Under the pieces are notes generated by a model. That model searched no databases, was not told where the DNA came from, and saw only the letters and a program-made list of their open reading frames with translations. A stretch of 64,000 nt of DNA from IMG/VR virus record IMGVR_UViG_3300025921_000010; one strand, written 5' to 3'. Below, piece by piece: positions 4,598 through 58,482 of the stretch. The translations under genes were made by a program, and so were the position numbers. This stretch comes from an uncultured virus (IMG/VR IMGVR_UViG_3300025921_000010). Its lineage: Duplodnaviria; Heunggongvirae; Uroviricota; Caudoviricetes; Crassvirales. Each line of letters starts with the position of its first letter. The stretch's first letter is position 1.

Positions 4598-4699
4598 TAT
4601 GCCGTTATCAGATAGCCGTATTTCACATTAGGGGTGGTTACGGCCCACGGCTATATCCGCTGTTGCCTAAAATGCCCTACATTATGGCGCCAATAAATA

Positions 4700-4994
4700 G
4701 TTGGGCGCAATTAAGTGTCCAACAGTTCCATTAGTGCTTCGTTGACAGATTCTCGGTATGCTTGCATTATCTCATTTCTACCCCAGCCAGTTTTTGCTTG
4801 TAGTTTCTCAGCAAATATTTCTTCAATTCGTTTTAAAATTTTTTTATTCATAACAAATTTAAACTGCGCCCAACATTTCATTGGCTTAATCGGGGCTGAA
4901 CGATATGTGCTCAACGGAAGTACTTCTATTTAGCATTAGTGCAAGGCTCGGCGGACGTACTTCGATTTCCCCGCCTGCGCCAATGAGTTGACTA
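4700..4994 (+). mobile_element. satellite attC-like cassette containing a small minus-strand ORF
   Basis: GTTGGGCGCA 4700-4709 is complementary to TGCGCCCAAC 4865-4874; ~130 bp hairpin 4865-4994 resembles the array sites. Confidence 0.75.
4711..4851 (-). CDS. small hypothetical protein (cassette ORF)
   Basis: likely ATG at 4851 (MNKKILKRIEE...); the ORF track extends it to 4914. Confidence 0.6.
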   Translation of the reverse strand: MNKKILKRIEEIFAEKLQAKTGWGRNEIMQAYRESVNEALMELLDT

Positions 4995-22455: not shown

Positions 22456-22878
22456 TTAGTTTTCGCATTTAATATTTTTTTCAACTTCTTGTAAAACTTG
22501 TTTATAATTAATGCAAGTGAACCGTAAAACTTTCCATCCTAAGCTAATTGCCAGGTTTATTTTATCCGTGTCCTTAGTAAAGCCTAAAAGGGTTGTATGG
22601 CCCGACTTCTCACTGTTCAATCCATCATATTCTATTGCTATTTTAAATTCAGGCAAAGCAAAATCTGCCCTGTATCGCCTTCCTTTTGCGAATTTGAACT
22701 CTTTTTCAAGTCTTATTCCTTTTTCAATGCACCAATACTTTAATTGCCAATGAATCCAGGAAACTTCTTTACAATCATTGCGTGCTTTTTTCACTTTCTT
22801 TTTTACCGGTTCAACGAAAAGGTGCTGATTCCGTGAAAAACAGGCTGATTTTTTAATATCGTCAATGGAGAAATTCAC
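22456..22878 (-). CDS. DUF559/Vsr-like PD-(D/E)xK endonuclease
   Basis: RYRADFAL, IAIEYDG, LGWKVLRFT. Confidence 0.8.
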   Translation of the reverse strand: MNFSIDDIKKSACFSRNQHLFVEPVKKKVKKARNDCKEVSWIHWQLKYWCIEKGIRLEKEFKFAKGRRYRADFALPEFKIAIEYDGLNSEKSGHTTLLGFTKDTDKINLAISLGWKVLRFTCINYKQVLQEVEKNIKCEN

Positions 22879-23997: not shown

Positions 23998-24008
23998 TGG
24001 TTTTTATT

Positions 24009-24996
24009 TTAAGGGTTTTTATAATTTAAATTTTCATTCCACAGGTAATATTTTTTCATCCCTAAATAACTTCCATTTTTAAATTGTGGAATTTCTTTTT
24101 TACAAATTAACCCACGAGAGGCAAACCAAAAACAGATAGTAAATTCATCATTCTTTTCATCCGTTGGCGCAAACCATTCGTCTTGCGGAAAAGTTTCTAA
24201 TACCGATAAATAATGGTCGTTCGTTTCATGGTCTAAAAACCCGTGTCTTTGTAATATTGATTTTATCATTTTAAAGTTTTATTGGTTTAGTAATAAAATT
24301 TCTTTATCTATTCCAGGCGTGAAAAATGCCGGATAAAATCTTACCTTATATTTATCCGTTTGTTTATGGCCCGGCCATTTACCGCCCGTTTGCTCCATAA
24401 ATTTTTTAAGGATTTCTTTGCCGAGCTCCATTTGTTGTTCTTCAGGAACTTCTTTTGTTTTTCCCATTTTATATAGTGCGTAACATCTTGCTTTTATTGT
24501 TGACATATTTTTTAATTTAATTCAGGTTTAAAAATTTCTTCTTCGATTTCACATATTTTACTTTCTGCTATTAATCTTATTTCCCACTCTTTTTCTTCAA
24601 TAATTCTTTCGTTATTTTTCTTCAATAATTCTTTCATTCTATTTACACATAATTCCCTATGCTTTACGTTTTCTTCAAAACTTAAACATCTTTCGAAAGG
24701 AGGCAATATAAACTCCTCTTCATCCAACAGGTGGCCTCTTATGTATAATTCTAATCTCAAAAGGGTAGTGCTTCGGTGAATAATTTTATTTTACAGGGCC
24801 TTGCAAATTTTCTTAGTTGCTTGACACTTTTCTTACTACTTCCGTAGAGTAAAATTGATTTACTCCCATTATTATAAACCTCTTTTACTTCTTTTTCATT
24901 AAACCAAAACTTCCCAGAGTGCCAGAAAAGACCTTCTATATTCGTGAAGTAATACCCGTTTATTTCAACGGCCTTTAATCTAAATTTTCGGTTCAT
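24009..24996 (-). other. cluster of four small hypothetical CDSs (24009-24269, 24279-24506, 24512-24760, 24757-24996)
   Basis: tightly packed co-oriented ORFs. Confidence 0.6.
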
Positions 24997-25050
24997 TTTT
25001 AATTAGTTGTTTAGAAGTTAGACGGCAGCAATACAAACGTTGTAGGCAAC

Positions 25051-25626
25051 CTACGCAACGCTCTGTAATAGTTCAGGGTTTAAGAATCGGTTTCCAATTA
25101 TCTTTTTTGATTTTACTGCTGAACCGCCAAACTGAACAGAATAACAAGCGTGGCTCTTATCGTCAATTCTTTTTAAGTGGAAGCTGCTATCACATCCATA
25201 ATCGCATATTAGTCTGATGATTGGCTTCTGTTTATCTTCGCCGAACGGATTAAACCCATTTAAAGGGTGGTCTCTAATCATTTCTTCGTGATATTCAATT
25301 TCTACAATATCATCTTCATATAATTCAATGCCATTGTATTTTTGATTAGAGAATTGGCATTTTGCAACTATTGAATATCCTGTGAGCCTTTCACATTGTG
25401 TTTTACATTCGCCATTGAATATTTGCGAGTAATCAAACACGATTGAACACATTCTTCCTGTTTCTTCATGTTGGAAAATATATTTGAATTTAATTTCACG
25501 GCTCTGAAACAGGCTGCCTACAACATTCGTATTTGCGTTAGGCTGGCTGACCTGCTGATTTTGAGCAGTTGAATTGCTATCAGCTTCGGTTTCGGCTGAA
25601 AGTTCGTTGATGTTACTATTATTCAT
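25051..25626 (-). CDS. YopX-family protein with attC-encoded leader (cassette 1)
   Basis: REIKFK, ELYEDDIV, IIGNRFLNPELL. Confidence 0.8.
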   Translation of the reverse strand: MNNSNINELSAETEADSNSTAQNQQVSQPNANTNVVGSLFQSREIKFKYIFQHEETGRMCSIVFDYSQIFNGECKTQCERLTGYSIVAKCQFSNQKYNGIELYEDDIVEIEYHEEMIRDHPLNGFNPFGEDKQKPIIRLICDYGCDSSFHLKRIDDKSHACYSVQFGGSAVKSKKIIGNRFLNPELLQSVA

Positions 25627-25707
25627 ATTTTGAAGTTTTGTTTTTTAATTTAGCTGACGTTCGGGCGAAAAGTTCTTTTATCCAGCCCAAACGCAAATAC
25701 GTGGTCG
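25515..25707 (+). repeat. attC-like site 1 (long class)
   Basis: TGCCTACAAC ... CGTATTTGCGTT/AACGCAAATACG ... C-GTT. Confidence 0.85.
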
Positions 25708-25719
25708 TTAGCAGTAACC

Positions 25720-26031
25720 TTATGCGACAATGTACAAATCATCCATAGTTCGCAAACCTTCAGCACCATCGTATTCTTCAACTTGAAATGCCGTGCCAAT
25801 AGGTAGCCAATGAATTCGCAAATCAGAAGCACCCCCACAATAAACATCTTCAATTCCTAAATTTTCTTTTATCCAATCTTCATCAATTTGGTCAGCTTTT
25901 CCTTTCTCTACCATTTCGACAATTTTAGGGCTAAATAATAATTGCTCATTGCTATTCCAAGAATACCAACCTGCACCAAACCCGTGTGAGATAAGCACGG
26001 CAACTTTTCCATCTCTAATTACTTTTTCCAT
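25720..26031 (-). CDS. conserved phage hypothetical protein (cassette 2)
   Basis: GKVAVLISHGFGAGWYSW, EEYDGAE. Confidence 0.75.
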   Translation of the reverse strand: MEKVIRDGKVAVLISHGFGAGWYSWNSNEQLLFSPKIVEMVEKGKADQIDEDWIKENLGIEDVYCGGASDLRIHWLPIGTAFQVEEYDGAEGLRTMDDLYIVA

Positions 26032-26069
26032 TTTTATATTTGTTTTTTTTACGCTGACCGAAAAAAGGC

Positions 26070-26198
26070 TACTGCTAACATTGCATTGCCAAAATTGGGG
26101 CAGACGTGGTTAATTTAAACTTTTGTACTACTATTAAACTTCATTGCTAAATTGAACATTTGGTTTTCAAAATCCCCAACTTCGGCAATGCTTCAACG
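26070..26198 (+). repeat. attC-like site 2 (129 bp)
   Basis: TACTGCTAAC complements GTTAGCAGTA at 25707; arms GCATTGCCAAAATTGGGG / CCCCAACTTCGGCAATGC. Confidence 0.88.
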
Positions 26199-26210
26199 TT
26201 ATAGGGGCAT

Positions 26211-26432
26211 TTAAAGAGCCTGCGTAACCATATCGGATTTATTTTTAACTATTTCATACTTCCCGTTAAAGGGGTAGAAATTTTCACCTTTATCACCATA
26301 ACCTATAGCCTTCATTATCCCATCAGTTCCCATAATAAAATCTGCGGCATCACCACCAACCCATAGTTGAGACTGAAATCTTTTAGTTCCATCTTTTAAA
26401 GTTCCGATATGTAGTAATTTAATTTTGTTCAT
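26211..26432 (-). CDS. hypothetical protein (cassette 3)
   Basis: likely start MNKIKLL at 26432. Confidence 0.65.
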   Translation of the reverse strand: MNKIKLLHIGTLKDGTKRFQSQLWVGGDAADFIMGTDGIMKAIGYGDKGENFYPFNGKYEIVKNKSDMVTQAL

Positions 26433-26448
26433 CGTGTTGTAAATAAAC

Positions 26449-26577
26449 GCCCTATAACATTGCATTGCAGCAAGTGGGGCAGACGGAAGTTAATAATCTG
26501 TTGTTCGTTGTTCAGCTTTAGTTCTTGTGCTGGGCAGACGGAGCGCTGAATATCCCACCTGCTGCAATGCTTCAACG
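26449..26577 (+). repeat. attC-like site 3 (129 bp; interior identical to site 11)
   Basis: CCCTATAAC complements GTTATAGGG at 26198. Confidence 0.88.
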
Positions 26578-26587
26578 TTATCGGCGA

Positions 26588-26962
26588 TTAGACACGAGCT
26601 TCGTCATTAATCGGAGCCGCATCTTCATAAAAACCACCATTAAGAACGTGTATATATTGCGCTTCTGAAAGGCAATCAAAAGACAACCTTGCACCACCTT
26701 TTAAATGTATTTTAGATGTTTCAAAATTTATTAGTTCGATTTGAGAATATGAGCAGCCAGTATCAATTTCTGTTTCATAAAATATCTTTTTCCATTGATT
26801 TTTAGTTGGCCGGTATTTTCTACTTTTAGAAGGTTGTACCATCACAAAACCGCCGATAACATGCCGTTTTGCACAAGCAGGGCTGACGTGCGAATTATCA
26901 GCAGCAGAATCATTATTCGGCTTCTGTTCCGGCTTGACGTTCTCTATTTTGCTTAAAATCAT
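26588..26962 (-). CDS. hypothetical protein with attC-encoded leader (cassette 4)
   Basis: start codon lies inside site 4. Confidence 0.65.
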   Translation of the reverse strand: MILSKIENVKPEQKPNNDSAADNSHVSPACAKRHVIGGFVMVQPSKSRKYRPTKNQWKKIFYETEIDTGCSYSQIELINFETSKIHLKGGARLSFDCLSEAQYIHVLNGGFYEDAAPINDEARV

Positions 26963-27044
26963 AATCTCAACTATTTGTTTATTTACTGTACTTTAGTTCA
27001 GGCAGAAGTTTTTCAATTGCCCTGCCATCGGCAATACCTGGCCG
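26851..27044 (+). repeat. attC-like site 4 (long class, partly mismatched arms)
   Basis: CGCCGATAAC complements GTTATCGGCG at 26577. Confidence 0.82.
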
Positions 27045-27061
27045 TTATCGGAAAGGGGAAG

Positions 27062-27340
27062 CTATTCCGCAGCTTCATAAGTCTTTTCAAAAATATCTGG
27101 CTTGCAAGGGTAGAACTCACAGTTTATACCTTTGATAATCCAATCATTAACTTTACCTATCATTATCCCTTCAAGTGTTTTTATTTGAAGATATGCGCCA
27201 GTGGGATTATCTTCTGACGGTTCAAGAACAGGACTTTCTATTATTAAATCATTTGAGAACTGTTTTATCTCATGTCCGTTGTGACCTGTGTATTGAATAG
27301 CTTCAATAACAACTGGCTTTTTTTTGAATTTCTGTATCAT
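27062..27340 (-). CDS. conserved phage protein (cassette 5)
   Basis: KFKKKPVVIEAIQY...IKTLEG...EFYPCKPDIFEKTYE; likely start 27340. Confidence 0.8.
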   Translation of the reverse strand: MIQKFKKKPVVIEAIQYTGHNGHEIKQFSNDLIIESPVLEPSEDNPTGAYLQIKTLEGIMIGKVNDWIIKGINCEFYPCKPDIFEKTYEAAE

Positions 27341-27377
27341 ATTTTTTGTTTTTAAAGTTTCTAAAATTTTGCCGCCC

Positions 27378-27505
27378 TTCCGATAACAGCCCGTTTTGCG
27401 CAAGCAGGGCAGACCTGCTAAAATCAACTTCATCTCGCTATTTTGCTTTCGTGCTTTGCTGGGCAGAAGTACTTTTAATTCCTGCCGTGCGCAAAGCGGA
27501 AAACG
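27378..27505 (+). repeat. attC-like site 5 (128 bp)
   Basis: TTCCGATAAC complements GTTATCGGAA at 27044. Confidence 0.86.
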
Positions 27506-27512
27506 TTGCACG

Positions 27513-27959
27513 CTACCTATTCGATAGGGTTGACAAATATTCTTGCTCTGTTGCAGGGAGCCATCCAGAATATGAATAACTGCAATTTTGTAATGGTGAA
27601 ATATAACTATCAGCGCAAAAAATATGTGCTGAATCATCGCGCCATTCACCATTTCCAGCACTAAAATGCTTTTTCACTTTTAGGTAAACATCTGGCAATG
27701 GATTGTCGGCACCATCTACCATGTCTGTTTGCTTTACATACGCTGGCATATCTTCTACTTTCCTTTTTTCCCACCACCCCAGTTCTTTAAACAGATGTGG
27801 GAAGTCAGATATTTTCCAAACAATACCTTCGCTTTCATCTTCATCATTAACATACCTACACCAATCTCTATCCAAAATTGAACCTACTTCATAGTTTCTG
27901 TTATTAGGGAAAGCGGCAATTACTTCCCACCTTTTTTTTAATAATTCTTCGTTTGACAT
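27513..27959 (-). CDS. hypothetical protein (cassette 6)
   Basis: likely start MSNEELLKK at 27959. Confidence 0.7.
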   Translation of the reverse strand: MSNEELLKKRWEVIAAFPNNRNYEVGSILDRDWCRYVNDEDESEGIVWKISDFPHLFKELGWWEKRKVEDMPAYVKQTDMVDGADNPLPDVYLKVKKHFSAGNGEWRDDSAHIFCADSYISPLQNCSYSYSGWLPATEQEYLSTLSNR

Positions 27960-28002
27960 TTTGTGTTTATTTAAAAGTTTATAATTCAAAGTCTGAAATT
28001 GC

Positions 28003-28131
28003 AGCGTGCAACAATCGGTTTTCTGATACGGGGGCTGACGAATAAATTCTGAACATTTTTTCCTATATTCATCAGTAGTGCTTTCATCGGCTGACGTTCC
28101 CTGATTCCCCGCATCAGAAAGCCTCCGGACG
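28003..28131 (+). repeat. attC-like site 6 (129 bp)
   Basis: AGCGTGCAAC complements GTTGCACGCT at 27505. Confidence 0.88.
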
Positions 28132-28398
28132 TTAGGCGCCATTTGACGACCAGATAATGCCTGATACTTTCCATGCAGTTTTAGCACTCAACCGCCAACT
28201 GTATAACCATTGCCAAGCAGTAGGTTTATCAATCCCTTCATAGTAGTTGCTTGTACCCCATAACTTAAAAAAGCAGATTAAACGGCGTATAACAAGGGGT
28301 TTGGCAATACTTGGGCAGACGGAATAAACCTCATCATTTGTAGTGCTATTAGGCTTTTGTTCCGGCTTGACATTAACTATTGAGCTATGTGCTTTCAT
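28132..28398 (-). CDS. hypothetical protein with attC-encoded leader (cassette 7)
   Basis: stop TAA overlaps the GTTA core; start lies inside site 7. Confidence 0.6.
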   Translation of the reverse strand: MKAHSSIVNVKPEQKPNSTTNDEVYSVCPSIAKPLVIRRLICFFKLWGTSNYYEGIDKPTAWQWLYSWRLSAKTAWKVSGIIWSSNGA

Positions 28399-28477
28399 TC
28401 AACTTTGGTTTTTTAATTTTACATTTGTTACGGCCTGACGAGCCTTGATTTCCCAAGCATCGCCAAGCCCCGATACG
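28284..28477 (+). repeat. attC-like site 7 (long class)
   Basis: GGCGTATAAC vs GTTAGGCGCC at 28131 (8/10 complementary). Confidence 0.83.
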
Positions 28478-28484
28478 TTGCCCG

Positions 28485-28913
28485 CTATTCAGTGACAGAC
28501 AGCACACGTCCAAGCGATATAATGAATATTCGACAACCTTCGTAATCCTGGAAAGAGCCAAACCATTTAGGGTTGACATCGCACAAATCAGCAAGACGAA
28601 TGCCTTTACATTCAACATCCATCTTTGGAGCGCCTTTAGCATAACCATTTTTAAAACGGACAATATCAAAGTCCTTACAGGTTTGCGAATGCCAGTAACC
28701 CTTTTTTACAAATCTATCTTTCCAGTACATTTTATCCTGCCTGTACTCTTCTTTCTTTTCGCCAGATTTAATCATATCAAACCATTTCTTAGTCAGCGTA
28801 AGATGAAGAACAGCGGGCAACATGCCGTTTTGCACAAGGCTGGCAGAAGTGCAGGATTCAGCAGCAGTTCGTTTATCTGCTTTTGTTCCGGCTTTTAGTT
28901 CATTATTTTGCAT
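28485..28913 (-). CDS. ASCH/PUA-like domain protein (cassette 8)
   Basis: LHLTLTKKWFDMIKSGEKKEEYR, VRFKNGY. Confidence 0.82.
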   Translation of the reverse strand: MQNNELKAGTKADKRTAAESCTSASLVQNGMLPAVLHLTLTKKWFDMIKSGEKKEEYRQDKMYWKDRFVKKGYWHSQTCKDFDIVRFKNGYAKGAPKMDVECKGIRLADLCDVNPKWFGSFQDYEGCRIFIISLGRVLSVTE

Positions 28914-29006
28914 TAGAATATATTTTTAAAGTTTTTATTCGTTTACTGTGCAGACGTTCCGGCGAAACGTTCTTTTAATCCAGCCCTGCGCAAAGCGGGC
29001 TGACCG
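28812..29006 (+). repeat. attC-like site 8 (long class)
   Basis: AGCGGGCAAC complements GTTGCCCGCT at 28477. Confidence 0.85.
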
Positions 29007-29018
29007 TTATAGGAAATT

Positions 29019-29279
29019 TTATTTTTTCCCACGCTCGGCAATGTGGTTAATAGCCATTTTAGCAACTTCTTCCATTTTATCTTTTGCTTCTTTTTCGGTG
29101 TCCCAACCTGTAAAATTTTCATTTATATCAAATGATAGCATTAGTTTGTGAATATCTCCATCACGCAAAAGATACATTAGTGATGTCCATTTACTTGTTT
29201 CTTTGTGTTGAACTGCCGTTATCAAAATGTCTCCATTTGGGTAGTTACTTGCAATTTCTAAAGCTGTTATTAAGTTCAT
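29019..29279 (-). CDS. hypothetical protein (cassette 9)
   Basis: likely start MNLITALE at 29279. Confidence 0.65.
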   Translation of the reverse strand: MNLITALEIASNYPNGDILITAVQHKETSKWTSLMYLLRDGDIHKLMLSFDINENFTGWDTEKEAKDKMEEVAKMAINHIAERGKK

Positions 29280-29317
29280 ATTTTCGTTATTAAAGCCAAC
29301 CCACAAAAAATAAAACT

Positions 29318-29409
29318 ATCCTATAACAAGCGGTTGGCAATATGCCACAGGATAGTGCGTGTATTGAAATTTAGTCCGTTGAAGTGGCACATCGCCAACC
29401 GCCTCAACG
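29318..29409 (+). repeat. attC-like site 9 (92 bp)
   Basis: TCCTATAAC complements GTTATAGGA at 29006; arms GCGGTTGGCAATATGCCAC / GTGGCACATCGCCAACCGC. Confidence 0.88.
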
Positions 29410-29637
29410 TTATCGGAAATATTTAACCCTTTTATTTGAGCAATCTTCACTACAAACAGGGTCACAGTTTTCTAAATCTATTTGAGACAGTCCTGTATCT
29501 TTGCCACATACAACGCAGATTGCACTTCCGATAACAAGTGCATTGGCGGCTACTTGGGCAGGCGGAATAACATCAGCTTCCGGTACTTTAATCGGCTCCC
29601 GTTCGGGCTTACCTACTCCAATCAACTTTAGATTCAT
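29410..29637 (-). CDS. small Cys-rich (zinc-ribbon-like) protein, about half encoded by the attC (cassette 10)
   Basis: CVVC...CSEDC; stop lies in the core site. Confidence 0.6.
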   Translation of the reverse strand: MNLKLIGVGKPEREPIKVPEADVIPPAQVAANALVIGSAICVVCGKDTGLSQIDLENCDPVCSEDCSNKRVKYFR

Positions 29638-29719
29638 AATATTTAGTTTTTGTTTGTTTACTGTACTTTTGTTCCGGCGAAATGTTCTCTATTTCCCAAG
29701 CATCGCCAATGCCTGGACG
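29526..29719 (+). repeat. attC-like site 10 (long class)
   Basis: TTCCGATAAC complements GTTATCGGAA at 29409. Confidence 0.84.
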
Positions 29720-29731
29720 TAAGGCGCAAGG

Positions 29732-29980
29732 CTACGACACAACAAGTGCTGCGACCTTTTCTTTTAGTTTATTGTATTCTGACCGATAAATCTCTTTTGA
29801 CTTTTCATAAGCATTCAAAAGATGATTGTAAGTCGCAAACTTTATTTCATCTTCTAATGACATATCCGAGCCATCGTTACCTTCGTTTGTACAAGGATAT
29901 TTCGCATCAAAATATTCCCTGTAAACATCAAGTGTTGGAATGAGTGCTTGTGCTTCCAACTCAATAAAAATTTTACTCAT
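29732..29980 (-). CDS. hypothetical protein (cassette 11)
   Basis: 82 aa ORF between GTAAGGCGCA and TGCGCCTTAC. Confidence 0.68.
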   Translation of the reverse strand: MSKIFIELEAQALIPTLDVYREYFDAKYPCTNEGNDGSDMSLEDEIKFATYNHLLNAYEKSKEIYRSEYNKLKEKVAALVVS

Positions 29981-30004
29981 AATTTATTTTAATTTGCCCG
30001 ACCC

Positions 30005-30133
30005 TGCGCCTTACATTGCATTGCAGCAAGTGGGGCAGACGGAAGTTAATAATCTGTTGTTCGTTGTTCAGCTTTAGTTCTTGTGCTGGGCAGACGGAGC
30101 GCTGAATATCCCACCTGCTGCAATGCTTCAACG
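30005..30133 (+). repeat. attC-like site 11 (129 bp)
   Basis: TGCGCCTTAC complements GTAAGGCGCA at 29719; 30013-30137 is identical to 26457-26581. Confidence 0.88.
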
Positions 30134-31117
30134 TTATGGGCAAGCTACCAGTCGTCTCCGTTCGGGATTGTATTCGTAATCCGACCAACTACAACTTTTG
30201 AATGTTGCCCTATGATTTACCCACCGCGTAAATGCTTTTTGGTAGCCATCGTCTCTTTTGTAAGGCATGACAAACGGCATTGCTCCCATTTCTCTAAGTG
30301 TCATTACCCGCTCCATGTCCTGATCAGGCGTTGTATCAAATCCAATCAGTACAAAAAACTGCATGTGTTTCGTTGGTATGCCAGCCTTTACGCAGCGTTC
30401 AATTCCAGATTTAACAATCTTGCCGTCTTTATATTTATCCCAGGCAAACGTTAGATACTTCTGATTGAACTTTGAATTTTGAAAATTACATTTTGCCAAT
30501 AGTTCTGCCTGTTCATCAGTTATAATTCGAATATTCAGCCCTTGCACAAAGCAAACTTTCAATTTCAATTCAATTATCCTTTCAAGGTTCACTTTCCAAT
30601 CGGTGCCGCCAAAGAAGTCGTTATCTAAAAGCATTAATCTATTGCCACCGTTAGGGTTGATAAGTATTTCATCAATCGTGTTATAATTCTTTGGTCTACC
30701 TTCTTTTTTTGGCACACAACAGAATTTGCAGGCAAAGCGGCAACCCTTCATACTAAACCCTAAATGATAATTGCAGTTAGGATAAAGAGAATAAGAAGGC
30801 GTTGCCCCTTCTATTTCTTCAGGCAAGCGGTTAAAGAAATCAATACCAGTACCACCGATCACAGCGTTTGGCGGCATTTGCGGCATTGGGGTAAAGGCAA
30901 AGATTTTGCTCATGTAAATCTTATCGTAAGTTTCGGCAAACATCAATCCATCGTACCAGCGAACTTCATCACCTAAAGCCTCATGGTAGCCGCAAATTTT
31001 CATTATTGCAAGGTTGGGTATCTTGCCATCCAAAGCAGCTACTCCGATTGCCCGCCTGCCCATAACATTGGTATTGCTGCTATGTGGGCTGACGGAAGTA
31101 ATTGAGCTTTTGTTCAT
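30134..31117 (-). CDS. radical SAM protein with attC-encoded leader (cassette 12)
   Basis: CxxxCxxC motif (GCRFACKFC), PNLAIMK, LLDNDF. Confidence 0.88.
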   Translation of the reverse strand: MNKSSITSVSPHSSNTNVMGRRAIGVAALDGKIPNLAIMKICGYHEALGDEVRWYDGLMFAETYDKIYMSKIFAFTPMPQMPPNAVIGGTGIDFFNRLPEEIEGATPSYSLYPNCNYHLGFSMKGCRFACKFCCVPKKEGRPKNYNTIDEILINPNGGNRLMLLDNDFFGGTDWKVNLERIIELKLKVCFVQGLNIRIITDEQAELLAKCNFQNSKFNQKYLTFAWDKYKDGKIVKSGIERCVKAGIPTKHMQFFVLIGFDTTPDQDMERVMTLREMGAMPFVMPYKRDDGYQKAFTRWVNHRATFKSCSWSDYEYNPERRRLVACP

Positions 31118-31185
31118 TTTATTATCTTTAGTAAGTTATTCGGCTGACGTGCTTCGATTTCCCACACATCAGCAATACCCGTCCG
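31057..31185 (+). repeat. attC-like site 12 (129 bp)
   Basis: TGCCCATAAC complements GTTATGGGCA at 30133. Confidence 0.87.
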
Positions 31186-31461
31186 TTATCTTATTATAAA
31201 TTTTAAAGTGTGTAATATCCTTGCCGCCTCTCTTAATGTCTCGTTCGTAAATCTTAACCCGGTGGCCCGGCACTCTCTTACTAATTCTGTTTTTAGTTCT
31301 TCTGGTAAATCTTCAATCTTTTTCATTCCTTCGTTTAAAAATAACTGGTACCTTCTTAATAGAACTCTTTTAGGGACTGCACTTGTAATCAAAAAATCTA
31401 ACATGCTTTTCTCTCTTTGGTACATTTCAGAAAACCTGGCTGATATTTCTATTTCAATCAT
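31186..31461 (-). CDS. hypothetical protein (backbone; its stop codon forms the array boundary)
   Basis: coupled to the DnaC-like gene. Confidence 0.65.
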   Translation of the reverse strand: MIEIEISARFSEMYQREKSMLDFLITSAVPKRVLLRRYQLFLNEGMKKIEDLPEELKTELVRECRATGLRFTNETLREAARILHTLKFIIR

Positions 31462-32327
31462 CTTCTTAAATCTTTTCCGGTAACATCAATAACATTGAAC
31501 ATTTCTTTCATCCTGCTTCTTACTCTGAATCCGTATTTTTCCTGGATTTGGTCAAAGTTTAAATTTGTAGAAATGATTAGTCTGGAATAATCGTTACTGT
31601 TTAAATAATAAGATTCTAAAAACTCTTTGAACCAGTTAATCTTTGAGCCATAATGATTTATGGTTTCTTCACTTCCAACATCATCCAGATAGATCACTTT
31701 CCCTTTTACCTGGCATCCGCCGTATTCTCTCACTTCCTCCGCCACATCAATCATTGAATGAATAGAAATAGGTTTTATGCGGTTATCTTTTACACAAGTA
31801 AACAGATATGTTTTTCCAAGTCCTGAAATTCCTCTAATCAATAACCCTTTTCCTAAAGAACCTCCAAAGCGTGGATCTTCTGAAAGAAAAAAACAAATAG
31901 CTTTTATAAGAGGTTTATTATATTCGTTTTGAATTAACTTTTTACCCTGCCTTAAACTTCCTTCTGCCATAACTTTAAAAAAATAATATGCATCACATTG
32001 TTTTTTTAATTTTTCATACTCGATACTTTCCTGCTCAGCTTGTCTTTTTAATTCCGATTTTATTTCAATTTCAGCGTGTTTATTTTCATTGGCGGTTCTC
32101 AGGATAGCTTCTGTATTAATTTCTTTTTCCCATTCGACAGATAATACTTTTAATTCGATATTAGCGGCTGATTCCCCTTTGCTCCATAACTTCCAAGCAA
32201 GATGCTTTTTTTTCGCCTCTATTGCGTTCCTAATAGCCTCCTCGCACTCTTTTTCGGTAATGATCATTTCATAATTGGTCAAATTCGATTGTTTCTCCAA
32301 CGGAAGTATGTTTTTTATTAGTTGCAT
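31458..32327 (-). CDS. DnaC/IstB-like AAA+ ATPase (helicase loader)
   Basis: GISGLGKT, IYLDDVG, IISTNL, RVRSRMKEM. Confidence 0.88.
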   Translation of the reverse strand: MQLIKNILPLEKQSNLTNYEMIITEKECEEAIRNAIEAKKKHLAWKLWSKGESAANIELKVLSVEWEKEINTEAILRTANENKHAEIEIKSELKRQAEQESIEYEKLKKQCDAYYFFKVMAEGSLRQGKKLIQNEYNKPLIKAICFFLSEDPRFGGSLGKGLLIRGISGLGKTYLFTCVKDNRIKPISIHSMIDVAEEVREYGGCQVKGKVIYLDDVGSEETINHYGSKINWFKEFLESYYLNSNDYSRLIISTNLNFDQIQEKYGFRVRSRMKEMFNVIDVTGKDLRR

Positions 32328-32997
32328 TTTTTTGCTTTTTAAAATCTTTTTTTATAATCCAGTTTATAAAATGTGAGTACACGGCTTCCTTGTCTGGGTA
32401 ATACCTTTTCCCAGTTAAATTTTGGTTTTTAAAAATATTCCACATGGTTTTTACTTCGTCTTCTTCCAGGTCCACCTGACATGTAATCTTAACCATTTCC
32501 TTTGCTGATTGAATTGTAGTTTTCGGCGCGGCGGCCAAATCTTCCGCGTGGGGCATGGAAGGAAACGTAGAATCTTTTAAAGGAATTTTTACGCAATCAT
32601 TAATAATAATATCATTATCATTTACATTAACAGTAACATTATCATTTACATTATCAGTTATATTTGTTATCGGACTTATAACCACCTTATCATCCGTTAT
32701 AACATCTTGTAACGTGGTTATAGGTTCTTCTCCTTTACCCCATCGTTTTTCCATTCCTTTTATTCCTGAATTAGATAATTTTTTCTTTTTTGTCTCAAAT
32801 TTTTTAAGGTCTCTTTTTAATTGCTGTTTAACCGGCTCAAATACCAAATCAACTACCATATCATCTATTACGGGGTTTTCGTCATTCACATAAGAAAGGA
32901 TAACCATAAACAATTCCCCAGCTTTTTCTCTTGGCATCTTTTTTACGGTGTGTATTAAATCTGCGTACAAGATGAACGAATTTTTATTTTCAGCCAT
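32269..32997 (-). CDS. replication initiator (DUF6291-like N-terminus)
   Basis: KNSFILYAD...AGELF; DNVNDNV low-complexity tract; precedes the loader gene. Confidence 0.75.
   Translation of the reverse strand: MAENKNSFILYADLIHTVKKMPREKAGELFMVILSYVNDENPVIDDMVVDLVFEPVKQQLKRDLKKFETKKKKLSNSGIKGMEKRWGKGEEPITTLQDVITDDKVVISPITNITDNVNDNVTVNVNDNDIIINDCVKIPLKDSTFPSMPHAEDLAAAPKTTIQSAKEMVKITCQVDLEEDEVKTMWNIFKNQNLTGKRYYPDKEAVYSHFINWIIKKDFKKQKNATNKKHTSVGETIEFDQL
32610..32725. repeat. iteron-like repeats, putative replication origin
   Basis: repeated CATTATCATTTACATTA and GTTAT/TTATAAC inside the initiator gene, as in lambdoid O genes. Confidence 0.5.
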
Positions 32998-41257: not shown

Positions 41258-41507
41258 CAAAAGTTCAAACAAAAGTTCAAACAAAATGGCCCAAAAAACA
41301 CGCAAAAATGAAGAAAATAAAAAATCGTGATATTGATTATCAATAAGTTAGATAAATAAAATGCACTACCTGCAGCTTCCCAAGCTGTAGGTAGCGGGTT
41401 CGAGTCCCGTCTTCCGCTCTTTTTAAACTCAATACCAGCAAGGATTTTAGGAAAATAAAAGAAATTAAAAAATGAAAAAAATATCAAACTCAAACAAAAG
41501 TTCAAAC
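41258..41507 (+). other. attP with a tRNA-Gly(CCC) 3'-half core (about 41372-41419)
   Basis: GCAGC-TTCCCAA-GCTGT anticodon arm, GGTTCGAGTCC T-arm, no 5' half; CAAAAGTTCAAAC arm repeats on both sides; IHF-like TATCAATAAGTTA 41338-41350. Confidence 0.85.
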
Positions 41508-42665
41508 GAAAAACTTCCTAATAATTGTTCAATTGACGGTTTTAAAATCGCTCCTGCGGATCTTTCAATGGATAAAAAGTGGTTTGTTTATTATACTTTT
41601 TATGATCCGGAATATCCAAACGGTTTTCGCCGGCAAATCAGAGGTGGGATAAATCGTTTTAAGAACTTTAAGGTTCGCAAAGAAGCGGCAGAGGAATTAA
41701 TGAAGCACGAAATGGCTGAATTAACGGAAGGGTTCAATCCATTTAAGAGAAAACTTATTGTGCCTGCTGACGCGGATGTAATCCCCGACACTCCTTTTAT
41801 TCAGGCGTTGCAAATTGCCTTTAAGAAAATTAAAGGTGTAAAAGGTACTCTGGTAGATATTCAAAGTGTCATCAAAGGGACTGCTGAGGCGGCCGAAAAA
41901 TTAGGAATTGATCAATTGCCGGTTAAAAATGTCTCACGGAAATATTTTAAAATGATTTTTAAACAATGTAAACAGGATAACCCGAAGTTTTCAGATAACC
42001 GGCAAAACGTTTACCGTAAATGGCTCAAAAAACTTTACGATGAATTAATAGAAATGGAGGCGGTAGAGGTGAATCCTTTAGTCTTTATCCGGAAAGAAAA
42101 AATAGTAAAGAAAAAAAGAGTGATGCCCACCGATGAACAAAGGGAGCAAATCAGTAAATACTTAAAAGAGAACTTTTATAATTTTTGGAGGGCAATACAA
42201 ATATTTTTTGCTTCCGGTTCCCGGGAAACTGAATTAATGAACGTGAAAATAAAAGATATTGATCTGAAAAATCAGCAATGCAAATACTTGGTCTTAAAAG
42301 GCAAAGAGGCGCACGAAGTAACCAGGCCAATAAGTGACGCTGTTTTGTACTTGTGGGAAGAATTGAAAGGCGAAGATGAAGATTATTTATTTTCGTATGA
42401 CCTGACACCAGGAGCGAATAAATTAAGTACCGAAGCATTATCTAAACGCTGGAAACGGCACGTAAAAAAAGAATTAGGAATAAATGTTGATCTGTATGCT
42501 CTCAAATATCTGAATACTACCGAAATAATGGAAATTCTGGATGATACCAAAGAAGCGATGAAATTAACGGCCCATACAACAGAGGCGATGATCGTAAAAA
42601 TTTACGACACGAAAAACAAACAAAGAAAAGATGATAAGATAAAAAAAGTGGGAAGTACTTTTTAA
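41472..42665 (+). CDS. int: tyrosine integrase
   Basis: SGSRETE, VLKGK, LYALKY, TAHTT, KIYD; adjacent to attP. Confidence 0.88.
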   Translation: MKKISNSNKSSNEKLPNNCSIDGFKIAPADLSMDKKWFVYYTFYDPEYPNGFRRQIRGGINRFKNFKVRKEAAEELMKHEMAELTEGFNPFKRKLIVPADADVIPDTPFIQALQIAFKKIKGVKGTLVDIQSVIKGTAEAAEKLGIDQLPVKNVSRKYFKMIFKQCKQDNPKFSDNRQNVYRKWLKKLYDELIEMEAVEVNPLVFIRKEKIVKKKRVMPTDEQREQISKYLKENFYNFWRAIQIFFASGSRETELMNVKIKDIDLKNQQCKYLVLKGKEAHEVTRPISDAVLYLWEELKGEDEDYLFSYDLTPGANKLSTEALSKRWKRHVKKELGINVDLYALKYLNTTEIMEILDDTKEAMKLTAHTTEAMIVKIYDTKNKQRKDDKIKKVGSTF

Positions 42666-45343: not shown

Positions 45344-46402
45344 TTAAAATAATAATTTCAATTCTTGTTTTACTTCCTGCGGTAATGAGATAGTTACCGG
45401 CATATCAATATTAAAGAAGTCGTGGTTTGCTATCTTAATTGCTGATTGCATTGAATTAGACCTGATATACCGATAAAAGGATGTTGTTGTTTTGTGGCCT
45501 GTTATCATCATTATATCCCTTTCTGATAATCCCGATAAATGCGCATTAGTCGCAAATGTTCTCCTGGCTGTGTGGCTGCTCATTAAATCACATTTTGGAA
45601 TTAGTGTGTCTATTCGCTTTCCTCCTTCAGTTCTTGTAAAGACTATTTTTTCAGTTATTCCGGCGCGTCTGGCAATTTCTTTTATCGCTTCGTTGTAGTA
45701 CTGGTAAGAGAAGATCTCCCCGAAGTTCCACTGGTAACGCTCACAAACCTGTTTAACTGTTCGTGAAATGGGGATGAAAACTATTTCACCTGTCTTTTGT
45801 GTTTTGATCTCAAAATAAAGTTTGCCGCCCATTTCTCTGAGGTAGTTTTTAGGTTCTGCAAGTATTAAAGCCAAATCGCTGTACCTAAGTCCTAAAAAGC
45901 AATGTAAGACGTAAATATCCCTCACTCTGTCATAGCCTGGTGTGTCTGCAAAGTCAGCTTCTAACAAGATTTTAATTTCTTCAATGGTGTTAAATACTGC
46001 TGTGGTTTCTTCCGTTGCTGCGCGGATGCCTGAACCATCAAAGTTAGTTTTCCCTTCATTTTTTAACCGGCGCAATACTGCTTTTATGCGTTGTAAAGTT
46101 CCCGCAATAGTGTTTTTAGAATACTCTTTATCCATCATCCAAATATTAAAATCTGTCGCCCATTTGATGCTAATATCTTCTAAGAATATCGTTTCAGTTT
46201 CTTGCTCAAACAGTTTTAAGATTTTAATATCTGTGGCGTAATTTTTAGACGTATTAGGGCTGTATTTGTTCCCATCCGGTGTAAGTACCTTGCCGCCCTC
46301 TATTTGTTCCTTAATAGCTTTAAATAGCGGTACAAATTCGGTTCCCTGTTTAACTGTCGGTTGAACGGTTGGAATGTTTGCGGTACTGGTTGAGTAAAAC
46401 AT
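45344..46402 (-). CDS. second tyrosine recombinase (Bacteroidota type)
   Basis: LGLRYSD, KTQKT, SSHTARRTFAT, TGHKT, FYRYI. Confidence 0.92.
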   Translation of the reverse strand: MFYSTSTANIPTVQPTVKQGTEFVPLFKAIKEQIEGGKVLTPDGNKYSPNTSKNYATDIKILKLFEQETETIFLEDISIKWATDFNIWMMDKEYSKNTIAGTLQRIKAVLRRLKNEGKTNFDGSGIRAATEETTAVFNTIEEIKILLEADFADTPGYDRVRDIYVLHCFLGLRYSDLALILAEPKNYLREMGGKLYFEIKTQKTGEIVFIPISRTVKQVCERYQWNFGEIFSYQYYNEAIKEIARRAGITEKIVFTRTEGGKRIDTLIPKCDLMSSHTARRTFATNAHLSGLSERDIMMITGHKTTTSFYRYIRSNSMQSAIKIANHDFFNIDMPVTISLPQEVKQELKLLF

Positions 46403-51369: not shown

Positions 51370-51822
51370 ATGGAGTATTCTGAAAGCCCTTTTAAGGTTA
51401 TCGAAGGGAAGATAAAAGAGGTCTTTAAGGAAAGTAAAGGCGCTCCTTTTGAGATGGCTGATGTAAAGACTGGTGAGGTAAGTTTCTTCCAAAAGGTAAC
51501 AAGAGTTAGCAACGCAATAGTTGACACGTCCAATTATACCAAAGTTTACAAAGGCAATTCAGATGTGTTTTATGAGTTTGGGTTGAAAGAGTTCTTACTG
51601 TTCTACTATATTGTTGATAATCTTGGCATTCATACAGACCGTATAATGCTTTACCCTGAGTTGCTATATGATGCTTGTAAAATGAGTGAGAGTACATTCA
51701 GAAGGGCTTTAATCACCTTACTCGAAAAGAACATAATAGCCCGAAAGAAGGGAAGTAGTATAGAGTTCTTTGTGAATATTAATTATGTGTTTAATGGGAG
51801 CAGATTGAAGCTGAAGAGTTAA
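51370..51822 (+). CDS. RepL-like winged-helix DNA-binding protein
   Basis: MSESTFRRALITLLEKNII, FFVNINYVFNGSR. Confidence 0.7.
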   Translation: MEYSESPFKVIEGKIKEVFKESKGAPFEMADVKTGEVSFFQKVTRVSNAIVDTSNYTKVYKGNSDVFYEFGLKEFLLFYYIVDNLGIHTDRIMLYPELLYDACKMSESTFRRALITLLEKNIIARKKGSSIEFFVNINYVFNGSRLKLKS

Positions 51823-57253: not shown

Positions 57254-57790
57254 TTAATCTTCAAAATCTTCTACCAACTGACTTTCAGAAACAGCGTATA
57301 TTTCACTTTGGTTTAAAATAATATTATCTTTAACTTTTACGCCTAAATTCTTAGGGTAAATAACTACATCTCCGACTTCCAGTAGCATGGGCTCTGACTG
57401 TGTCCCGCTTCCGGTGGCGATAACCTTTCCTTCGGCTATGGTTTTATCTTCGAGTAAGACTACGCCACCTTCGGAAAGCGTTTCGTCTTTTTTAATGGGT
57501 TCAATAAGTACTCTTGCGTGAAGTGGTATCATAGTATTGTCTTTTATAGTTCCTAAGATGAAGTTGTGATTAATAGATAAGTATTTTTTATCTCCGTATT
57601 CTGCGATATATCCGGTGCGGTGGTTGTAGAAAACGTGATCGCCGTCTTTTAATTCGTGATCCGGTGATATTGAGATAATTATTCCTGTGTTAGTAGGTTT
57701 TCTTGCTTCTTCCGGTATATGGATGCCGTTTATTTTATCCGGTGGAGTGTCTGGAAGAATGACCGCCTGTAATCCGTAGTATTTCAGCAT
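57254..57790 (-). CDS. tandem GroES-like co-chaperonin
   Basis: GIHIPEEARK...KDGDHVFY and PLHARVLIEP...EGGVVL...VIATGSG...VGDVVIY. Confidence 0.8.
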   Translation of the reverse strand: MLKYYGLQAVILPDTPPDKINGIHIPEEARKPTNTGIIISISPDHELKDGDHVFYNHRTGYIAEYGDKKYLSINHNFILGTIKDNTMIPLHARVLIEPIKKDETLSEGGVVLLEDKTIAEGKVIATGSGTQSEPMLLEVGDVVIYPKNLGVKVKDNIILNQSEIYAVSESQLVEDFED

Positions 57791-57813
57791 TTAGTGGGAA
57801 TGAAATAAAAAGT

Positions 57814-57905
57814 GAAGATACAAAATGTATCGAATCTACCAAATTTATTTTAGAAATTTCTCCCCTTTTTTTACGATACAATTTGTATCTACCTGTCTAA
57901 CTTTG
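57814..57905. promoter_or_regulatory. divergent promoter module 4
   Basis: palindromes 57817-57831 and 57875-57889; TAACTTTG 57898-57905. Confidence 0.87.
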
Positions 57906-57912
57906 TTCCAAG

Positions 57913-58482
57913 ATGAAATCTCCTTTTAAGTTTATAATCAACATAGAAAAGCCTTACATGGATGAAGCGCCAACAGCTTCCGGTATAAAATTATACCGTG
58001 ATACTACGTTTCATCCTGAAAACTACGCCCAAACTCACGGTGTAGTAACAAGCACCCCTCTAAAAAATGATTTGGATGTTCAAAAAGGCGATGAAATCTA
58101 CTTTTCTTATCAGGTAGTAGAGGATAAAGAACAAAGAGACCGCGATACTGACGTTCATAAAAATATGATTTTTTACAACGGGCAAAAATCATGGATGGTT
58201 AATACCGACCTCGTGTATTTCAGAGTTCGTAATGACCAAATAGGAATGCTGAATAAATATGCTCTCGTGGATTTAATGGAAGAAGAACAAACGTCCTCTT
58301 TAGTCATTCCTGATTACTTAAAAAAAGTGAAGTTGTTAGGACAGGCACGAATCATTGCTTCCGCTAATCTAAAAAAGGGTGAAGTGATCTTATTTGACAA
58401 GCGGTTTATAGAAACTTATGAACTCTTTGGAAGGGAGTATTACATTTTGCACGAAGAAAGAATACTGGCGAAATTAGGTTAA
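57913..58482 (+). CDS. divergent tandem GroES-like protein
   Basis: TASGIKL...GVVTSTP...KGDEIYF and SSLVIP...KGEVILF...HEERILA. Confidence 0.6.
   Translation: MKSPFKFIINIEKPYMDEAPTASGIKLYRDTTFHPENYAQTHGVVTSTPLKNDLDVQKGDEIYFSYQVVEDKEQRDRDTDVHKNMIFYNGQKSWMVNTDLVYFRVRNDQIGMLNKYALVDLMEEEQTSSLVIPDYLKKVKLLGQARIIASANLKKGEVILFDKRFIETYELFGREYYILHEERILAKLG

Follow-up and report, generated by a model that had tools for sequence, protein, structure and literature searches.

An intact integron-like array of twelve single-gene cassettes in the early operon of an uncultured Crassvirales phage

We analyzed a 64,000-nt stretch of DNA from an uncultured soil virus of the order Crassvirales (IMG/VR record IMGVR_UViG_3300025921_000010; "the window" below means this whole stretch), which carries an intact, integron-like array of 12 gene cassettes. 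Large genes on the plus strand, including those for a PKD-domain protein and a chitinase-like lysin, occupy 279-22190. The early operon lies on the minus strand, from 40445 down to 22456, and its products include an Erf-like annealing protein, a NinB-like protein, a DNA methylase, a DUF6291 protein and a DnaC-like loader. The cassette array sits inside this operon, between the small genes p91 and p79. Its 12 units span 25039-31185, each running from one G/TT to the next (the slash marks the crossover point), and each unit starts with G/TT(A)N7. An alignment of the 12 hairpins of the window (A1) served as the profile in all family searches. The features are given below; strands at the head of cassette lines are those of the sites (H1 to H12), and the score at the end is the match between the first 10 nt of the unit and the inverted copy (partner box) that opens its hairpin. 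ORF stands for open reading frame.

24757-24996, minus strand: left flanking gene p79 (from the ORF list), the first gene past the array in the direction of transcription
25025-25038, plus strand: lone right-arm site remnant, complementary to the left arms of H1 and H12, without a left-arm partner
25039-25706, plus strand: cassette 1; ORF 25051-25626 (minus), weakly YopX-like; H1 25515-25716, 202 nt; 10/10
25707-26197, plus strand: cassette 2; ORF 25720-26031 (minus); H2 26070-26207, 138 nt; 10/10, profile match
26198-26576, plus strand: cassette 3; ORF 26211-26432 (minus); H3 26449-26586, 138 nt; 9/10
26577-27043, plus strand: cassette 4; ORF 26588-26962 (minus); H4 26851-27053, 203 nt; 10/10; 34-codon in-frame leader from a loop ATG
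27044-27504, plus strand: cassette 5; ORF 27062-27340 (minus), phrog_419 at 4.7e-32; H5 27378-27514, 137 nt; 10/10
27505-28130, plus strand: cassette 6; ORF 27513-27959 (minus); H6 28003-28140, 138 nt; 10/10
28131-28476, plus strand: cassette 7; ORF 28132-28398 (minus); H7 28284-28486, 203 nt; 8/10; 35-codon leader from a loop ATG
28477-29005, plus strand: cassette 8; ORF 28485-28913 (minus), phrog_625 at 4e-18, weakly ASCH-like; H8 28812-29015, 204 nt; 10/10
29006-29408, plus strand: cassette 9; ORF 29019-29306 (minus); short H9 29318-29418, 101 nt; 9/10
29409-29718, plus strand: cassette 10; ORF 29410-29637 (minus); H10 29526-29728, 203 nt; 10/10; 34-codon leader from a loop ATG
29719-30132, plus strand: cassette 11; ORF 29732-29980 (minus); H11 30005-30142, 138 nt; 10/10 including the changed core base (GTA...TAC)
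30133-31184, plus strand: cassette 12; ORF 30134-31117 (minus), radical SAM, phrog_9298 at 2e-68; H12 31057-31194, 138 nt; 10/10
31186-31461, minus strand: right flanking gene p91 (from the ORF list), whose stop codon abuts the last G/TT
4691-4990, plus strand: lone 13th cassette in the structural module; ∼46-aa ORF within 4711-4852 (minus); site ∼4865-4990, profile match

All 12 units named in the original prediction, an earlier reading of the same letters, are present with one ORF each, on the minus strand in 12/12 and with the site on the plus strand in 12/12. That prediction let every unit begin with G/TT. This holds for 11 of them, and the unit at 29719 begins with GTA, its partner box carrying TAC in place of AAC. 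As had been claimed, each unit contains a reverse-complementary copy of its own first 10 nt, which is perfect (10/10) in nine units and matches at 9/10 in two others and at 8/10 in the remaining one (partner boxes at 25515, 26070, 26449, 26851, 27378, 28003, 28284, 28812, 29318, 29526, 30005, and 31057), and the runner-up match to the 10-mer within any unit is 7/10 or less. The 10-mers mostly differ between units, as predicted, with one 10-mer shared by the units at 27044 and 29409. The long hairpins ending at the next GTT are likewise real: from partner box to next G/TT they measure 137-138 nt at six sites, 202-204 nt at five and 101 nt at one. The array end needs correction from 31190 to 31185/31194, a 13th G/TT at 31185 closing the last hairpin. 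At the other end, the right-arm remnant lies directly left of the first G/TT, where the attI of an integron would be. Concerning the cargo, the radical SAM label stands, but the YopX (Pfam E 0.003) and ASCH (E 0.019) labels fall below curated cut-offs.

The lone cassette in the structural module gave a profile match at 4866-4986 (E 1e-14) and has its own inverted 10-mer at 4691 and 4866. It lies between a 770-aa structural gene and an 82-aa ORF, with the 7-mer TTGGGCG at both its ends, and its right junction reads GAC/TAT instead of AAC/GTT. The 770-aa protein was sought in five relatives and was not found, so an empty-site comparison is not available for the cassette at 4691.

An Rfam scan of 24000-32000 at E<=1 and a megablast of 24000-32400 against deposited phage genomes gave no match. 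The nearest public record of the virus, G001 (L001), ends in the array at a duplicated site (window position 26582), which is probably an assembly break due to the repeat. Contig ends coincide with many other arrays too.

Pairing rule, crossover point and structure of the sites

One degenerate left-arm pattern fetched at least 124 viral and at least 135 bacterial stretches. The profile confirmed 41 of 124 viral and 82 of 135 bacterial loci among the matches listed (E<=1e-3). By a hand tally of record titles, 73 of these 82 listed bacterial loci are labeled Bacteroidota, mostly Chitinophagaceae or its genera (Ilyomonas, Ferruginibacter, Terrimonas, Ginsengibacter, Flavihumibacter, Flavisolibacter, and Lacibacter are named), and nine come from metagenome bins that carry a different label or no label. 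Site arrays were found in Flavihumibacter fluminis RY-1 (L170, 9 sites), and Ilyomonas limi and Lacibacter cauensis also have sites. Bacterial array sites are matched by the profile at full length, with E down to 1e-26. A chromosomal array in G012 contains at least 41 near-uniform ∼200-nt sites in 38 kb and continues off the contig, and one in G013 contains dozens of sites in 34 kb; the arrays in phage records hold 2 to 12. No site was found within the 18.9 kb examined of a Terrimonas rubra prophage that encodes a 46%-identical loader.

The pairing was tested on 150 non-identical adjacent site pairs from window, viral and bacterial DNA by scoring the seven variable bases. The start of a unit matched its own box at a mean of 6.4 of 7 in the window, 5.7 in viral and 6.2 in bacterial DNA. 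Random pairs gave 3.4-3.5, and the two ends of one hairpin as arrayed gave 2.6-3.6. Pairing of a unit start with its own site is a general rule, well beyond chance. Among the pairs that obey it, all four GTA-starting units have TAC in their own box, and three of the four hairpins that end at a GTA start have AAC. Since the third core base goes with the unit on its right (4/4 GTA units), the crossover falls 5' of this base, as at the G/TT of integrons. A repeated cassette of ∼362 nt in G013 occurs in copies that are 87-97% alike in different neighborhoods; their likeness starts at 0 or -1 relative to G/TT and ends at the next G/TT. This shows that the mobile unit in bacteria is a gene plus the site to its right.

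RNAalifold of 44 distinct ∼137-nt phage sites gave a stem of 15 pairs, 12 of which show compensatory changes on both sides. In these aligned sites an invariant unpaired A stands opposite a nearly invariant C, and AACA and CGTT are invariant at the ends. An asymmetric internal loop lies next to the box, and the A/C mismatch is found where bulged bases would be expected. When both strands of six window sites were folded as DNA, a check that the original prediction had suggested, the minus (bottom) strand was stabler than the plus strand in 5/6, and the bottom strand of H9 reached -22.3 kcal/mol (z -5.1). The strand difference is compatible with a mismatch that is A.C on one strand and reads as a G.T pair on its complement. 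H3 (26457-26585) and H11 (30013-30141) are 99% identical over 129 nt, from the AC of the inverse core to GTTAT, where the likeness stops; their genes and end boxes are unrelated.

The original prediction described the sites as attC-like, which is apt for the split-site pairing. They are nevertheless not classical attC: none of the 12 window boxes fits RYYYAAC and one of 13 fits GTTRRRY. Across 233 sites, 20 fit the former and 26 the latter, and the family has a 10-nt box consensus of its own.

Recombinase, gene orientation and turnover

In the bacterial record G014, the gene of a 410-aa tyrosine recombinase ends 105 nt ahead of the first cassette. A broken copy of such a gene lies just upstream of an array with eleven profile matches in G015; gene-to-array distances in these two records are 105-470 nt, and the recombinase is co-oriented with the cassettes. 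G013 has a 422-aa copy 3.5 kb from a diverging array. The three array recombinases share 42-56% mutual identity, and homologs at E<=1e-60 were detected in 47 of 121 sampled Chitinophagaceae genomes. At 12 of the 30 recombinase loci returned, a site is located downstream on the same strand within the 1.5 kb examined; several of the other 18 loci end at a contig end just beyond the gene. That the site family occurs in recombinase-headed Chitinophagaceae arrays supports the logic of the original prediction, which took the inverted unit-specific 10-mer as a mark of circularizing cassettes.

The same prediction had suggested an assay with an IntI from Bacteroidota. The likely enzyme is not an integron integrase. 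It aligns end to end with archaeal XerA (PDB 4a8e, 1.7e-33), but with the Vibrio integron integrase IntI4 (PDB 2a3v) in two blocks, having 22 residues where IntI4 has 62. On TIGR02249 it scores ∼97 + 91 bits with positions 182-239 unmatched, below the cut-off of 265. Judged by its sequence, the array enzyme heads cassette arrays but is not a member of IntI by the defining segment of that family.

The motif CGTATATTTAnGT/GTT precedes the first cassette in most recombinase-headed bacterial arrays (L282, 12933-13036, and the first-cassette junctions of L293, L303, L309-L311, and L317), and a GATAATCAAT-like box is present ∼45 nt further upstream. The two are candidate attI and enzyme-binding sites. 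The end of the array in one phage record, G009, resembles this motif.

Of the two tyrosine recombinases in the window, the integrase at 41472-42665 obtained 24.5 bits on TIGR02249 against the 265-bit cut-off and is 46% identical to the integrase of the related phage record G011, and so is an ordinary phage integrase; the second (45344-46402) is of a common Bacteroidota integrase type. A PF00589 search of ten array-bearing phage records found a match in four, three of them ordinary integrases. The complete phage records G010 and G139 have no tyrosine recombinase. No protein family is common to all six array-bearing phage sequences compared (blastp 1e-5), which leaves no candidate for a phage-encoded enzyme. 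Because the phages mostly lack an array-type enzyme, a host enzyme acting in trans would be the most economical reading.

Gene orientation, scored by the longest ORF of each unit with an ORF, differs between the two pools. In bacterial units the gene is sense to the site in 107 of 111 and antisense in four; in viral units it is antisense in 26 of 27 and sense in one. All five ∼203-nt sites of the window and H12 have a loop ATG on the transcribed strand, in frame with the gene via 17-35 codons. Cassettes 7 and 10 have no Met in their bodies, and in cassette 1 the body contains no start before residue 59, inside the YopX-like domain (the loop ATG gives it a 34-codon leader); these three genes therefore need a site-internal start. 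In G009 a nearly unchanged copy of the cassette 1 leader is joined to a protein of another kind, unrelated to that of cassette 1, with the changeover located at the box. Site-internal starts were tabulated in 20 rows (cassette 12 counted twice), and in 13 of them GTT is read as a codon. Promoter and terminator scans showed no enrichment (terminator-like sites, 6 vs. 6.2 expected; promoter-like sites, 16 vs. 19.4 expected).

A position in 5' leaders on the transcribed strand, enclosing start codons, would also suit regulatory stem-loops, that is, RNA structures or terminator or promoter modules, between which genes are swapped by homologous recombination between the repeats, an idea put forward for stem-loops in T4-type phages. 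The better folding of the minus strand, which is the mRNA sense, in 5/6 sites and the identical cores beside unrelated genes point the same way. Homologous exchange, however, yields neither unit-specific complementary boxes nor a core base that is linked to the cassette; the same sites are present in recombinase-linked bacterial arrays, where the genes are on the other strand; and in addition to the absence of enrichment in the scans, no hairpin overlies any of the six terminator-like sites. We regard this explanation as improbable.

The phage record G011 shares p91 (67%), p79 (86%), p140 (76%) and p76 with the window. Between p91 and p79 it has 12 profile matches, spanning its permuted ends, and p79 is on the same side of the array as in the window. 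When the 12 cassette proteins of the window were searched against G011 at 1e-4, none was found; all that matched were leaders encoded by the sites and, weakly, cassette 7 (34% over 70 aa, covering leader and body). L328 has the loader, p91 and then sites. The gene p91 is thus common to the window, G011 and L328, each with a different array. L002 and L003 have the loader (73%), p91 (about 70%), p82b and p140 and no site detected by the profile; L003 has a 40%-identical cassette 6 homolog where the profile finds no site. In all four of these records the p91 homologs (52-71% identity) are in the same place. Related phages were also compared at their breakpoints, as had been suggested with the original prediction, and likeness ends within ∼10-16 nt of the outer G/TT on both sides. 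The first cassette end and site that G010 and G011 have in common are too diverged to give a clean breakpoint. By these comparisons, the array occupies a fixed hot spot of the early operon, and its contents turn over between related phages. The predicted shuffleable store of accessory genes is borne out in that relatives share the flanks and differ in the cassettes; shuffling in the window phage itself, of which no instance was seen, is what we infer from them.

Selfish miniature elements of the REP or MITE kind, inserted between pre-existing phage genes, would come in discrete size classes and in many copies per genome, as the hairpins do. Here, the inverted 10-mers flank genes rather than hairpins, no transposase is linked to the phage arrays, and neither the hairpins nor the intervening genes occur in relatives that have the same flanking genes. 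Such an origin is very improbable.

The complete phage record L322 encodes an 89%-identical homolog of the radical SAM protein of cassette 12, likewise antisense to a site on its upstream side. Both of its end boxes differ from those of the window at the same three positions and are still complementary to each other, and the other end of the cassette abuts a sequence that fits the bacterial attI motif. Two more homologs (66-67%) are bounded by another self-complementary box pair, and a fourth (63%) has no site.

Read evidence came from contigs of other soil metagenomes aligned at 90% likeness. In run X4, a piece identical to cassette 11 starts at 29718 and is preceded by 11 non-fitting letters. 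A 1156-letter contig of run X5 joins a diverged H6-like site to cassette 11 (28123 to 29718, with 5 letters between). Contigs from these two other soil runs thus break at the left boundary of cassette 11, 29718/29719. Run X2 gave difference-free pieces on both flanks and cassettes 3-7, a piece of cassettes 2-3 with 4 other letters, and one contig that runs from about 27048 back to 25692; in cassettes 1, 8, 9, and 12 the body is outside the listed cover, and several short-sided joints were not used. In X2 and X3, one contig per run joins 25580 to 31191, which hints at a form with a truncated site beside p91, as in G011 and L328. Contig joints across repeats count here as hints.

Could the array be a dead relic, integron-like in origin and no longer recombining, in which hairpins are kept only for the translation starts or further expression signals they carry? 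No array-type recombinase is encoded in the window, no attI motif is present at the end of its array, and several genes rely on site-internal starts, which alone could hold the sites under selection. In a relic one would not expect 12/12 sites of full length with intact paired boxes, cassette content that differs between phages whose flanking genes are 67-86% identical, compensating changes in both boxes of the radical SAM cassette, a lone cassette in another module, or phage arrays that are widespread and nearly all of one orientation. We consider a relic unlikely, although it deserves to be kept in mind.

Interpretation and further features of the window

The array probably belongs to a site-specific recombination system of the integron-like kind, native to Chitinophagaceae (Bacteroidota), the likely hosts of the phage; its 12 single-gene cassettes would be mobile, with the host recombinase acting in trans. 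A cassette comprises an ORF, a box complementary to its own first 10 bases, and an imperfect hairpin site of 100-200 nt. After excision, pairing of the two boxes in the circle would close the hairpin, and a tyrosine recombinase would cut at G/TT on whichever single strand is folded. The ∼410-aa Xer-like array recombinase of the host would most likely act in trans, during lysogeny or replication, and the array would still be active in the window phage. Phage cassettes are mirror-oriented, with the site upstream of the gene on the transcribed strand; in many, the loop of the site gives a start codon and a leader of 14-35 codons, so that the site may double as a translation start module. At its fixed hot spot in the early operon, the array could serve the phage as an exchangeable store of accessory genes.

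Several observations weigh against this interpretation. Neither tyrosine recombinase of the window is of the array type, both being ordinary integrase types, and G009 alone, among the array-bearing phage records checked, has an array-type enzyme: this 20%-complete record (L131) encodes a 263-aa recombinase at 1237-2028 that adjoins the array, is 38% identical to the array enzyme, and lacks the ∼135-aa N-terminal extension of the bacterial protein. The left end of the window array lacks the bacterial motif CGTATATTTAnGT/GTT, so that new cassettes would enter by site-by-site recombination. An all-vs-all comparison of 151 unit proteins at 1e-6 found no cassette protein common to phage and bacterial arrays (just three weak pairs, each phage-phage), which gives no support for exchange between the two stores. 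Z-scores of single-hairpin folding in the six window sites are modest, -0.1 to -5.1. The read evidence consists of short metagenome contigs at 90% likeness, which are prone to cross-organism joints, and no circle, excision product or recombination event was observed. Finally, near-identical site cores adjoin unrelated genes and different boxes (H3/H11, and an H5-like core in run X5), which a simple cassette model, in which a site stays with its gene, does not explain. Either the cores are homogenized, or an existing core is reused when a gene is turned into a new cassette. The array of G012 (C10, 95000-133333; L283 and L284), in which the sites have near-identical cores and cassette-specific 10-nt boxes, is a good data set for this question.

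A further and more speculative idea concerns the orientation split. The phage cassette pool may be the mirror image of that of the Chitinophagaceae host, with the same sites and the same non-IntI recombinase of the host, antisense genes, and sites that carry a start and a leader. Cassettes landing in the other pool would be read backwards and remain silent. We put this forward tentatively and think it less probable than not; if true, a built-in expression barrier separates two gene stores that use one shuffling machine. The split and the site-internal starts lead to testable ideas on the expression of promoterless cassettes and on two gene pools served by one enzyme.

Elsewhere in the window, the early operon ends in a DUF559/homing-endonuclease-like gene (phrog_503, 22456-22878), with 64-77% identity in G011, L002, and L003. 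To the right of the integrase, the second tyrosine recombinase (of the Phage_int_SAM_5 type) is accompanied by a RepL-like protein, by two Cpn10-domain genes in divergent orientation and by a protein whose N-terminus is crAss muzzle-like (coordinates given jointly for this region: 45344-46402, 51370-51822, 57254-58482, and 62260-63999). The region could represent a second element, or more of a large phage. No tRNA marking a prophage end was found in the window.

Comparison with known systems

Integrons are known as gene-capture devices of bacteria, and site clusters in phages have been reported recently, as small clusters. The array described here is a large and intact one of 12 cassettes, from a non-classical family that is widespread among uncultured phages of soil and freshwater. 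Through it, the turnover of phage accessory genes is linked to a host recombination system in a phylum thought to be nearly integron-free. Cassette-specific boxes around near-identical cores bear on how cassettes are made, an open question of the field.

T4-type phages are said to carry promoter-early stem-loop modules (Arbiol, Comeau and Krisch 2010), which reportedly carry promoters and are exchanged by homologous or illegitimate recombination. In both systems, intergenic stem-loops flank small accessory genes in a variable early region and have been proposed to serve in shuffling. Unlike those modules, the window array has boxes that are complementary within each unit and specific to it, a crossover at a fixed point, and a bacterial counterpart linked to a recombinase.

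With classical and sedentary chromosomal integrons, the system shares the crossover at G/TT, the pairing of the cassette start with the inverse core of the same cassette, an imperfect hairpin in which a spacer may be unpaired, long near-uniform chromosomal arrays, and a recombinase gene at the head. It differs in the array recombinase, which is short by about 40 residues at the segment specific to IntI4, in 10-nt boxes with a consensus of their own, in an A.C mismatch that replaces flipped-out bases, and in sites of 137 or ∼200 nt. In classical cassettes the gene is on the strand of the site and the site is 3' of the gene, whereas the genes of the window are antisense in 12/12.

The integron-like arrays of Chitinophagaceae have the same site profile, pairing rule and core. 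They differ from the window array in having a recombinase and an attI motif at the head and sense genes; the window array has antisense genes and neither enzyme nor motif. A search of the full-text literature, a body that has most subscription journals outside its coverage, returned no paper on such arrays. The IntegronFinder 2.0 paper gives one complete integron in Bacteroidetes (PMC9024848).

Phage-borne attC clusters have been known since the screen of 10,705 phage genomes with classical attC models (IntegronFinder and HattCI) by Qi, Rajabal, Ghaly, Tetu and Gillings (Front Microbiol 2023; PMC9892861), and a relative of the window family may be listed in its supplementary tables. In that paper, integrons or their components are reported in 21 phages, 17 of which are CALINs (arrays of integron sites without an integron integrase), counted from two predicted sites up, and IntI1 recombined 5/6 tested sites (PMC9892861). 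The phage CALINs and the window array are alike in being site arrays without an integron integrase, with non-resistance cargo and an expected host enzyme (PMC9892861). Set against the same account, the window array differs in its 12 cassettes, its non-classical sites of 101-204 nt, its antisense genes, and the Xer-like enzyme that is associated with its site family.

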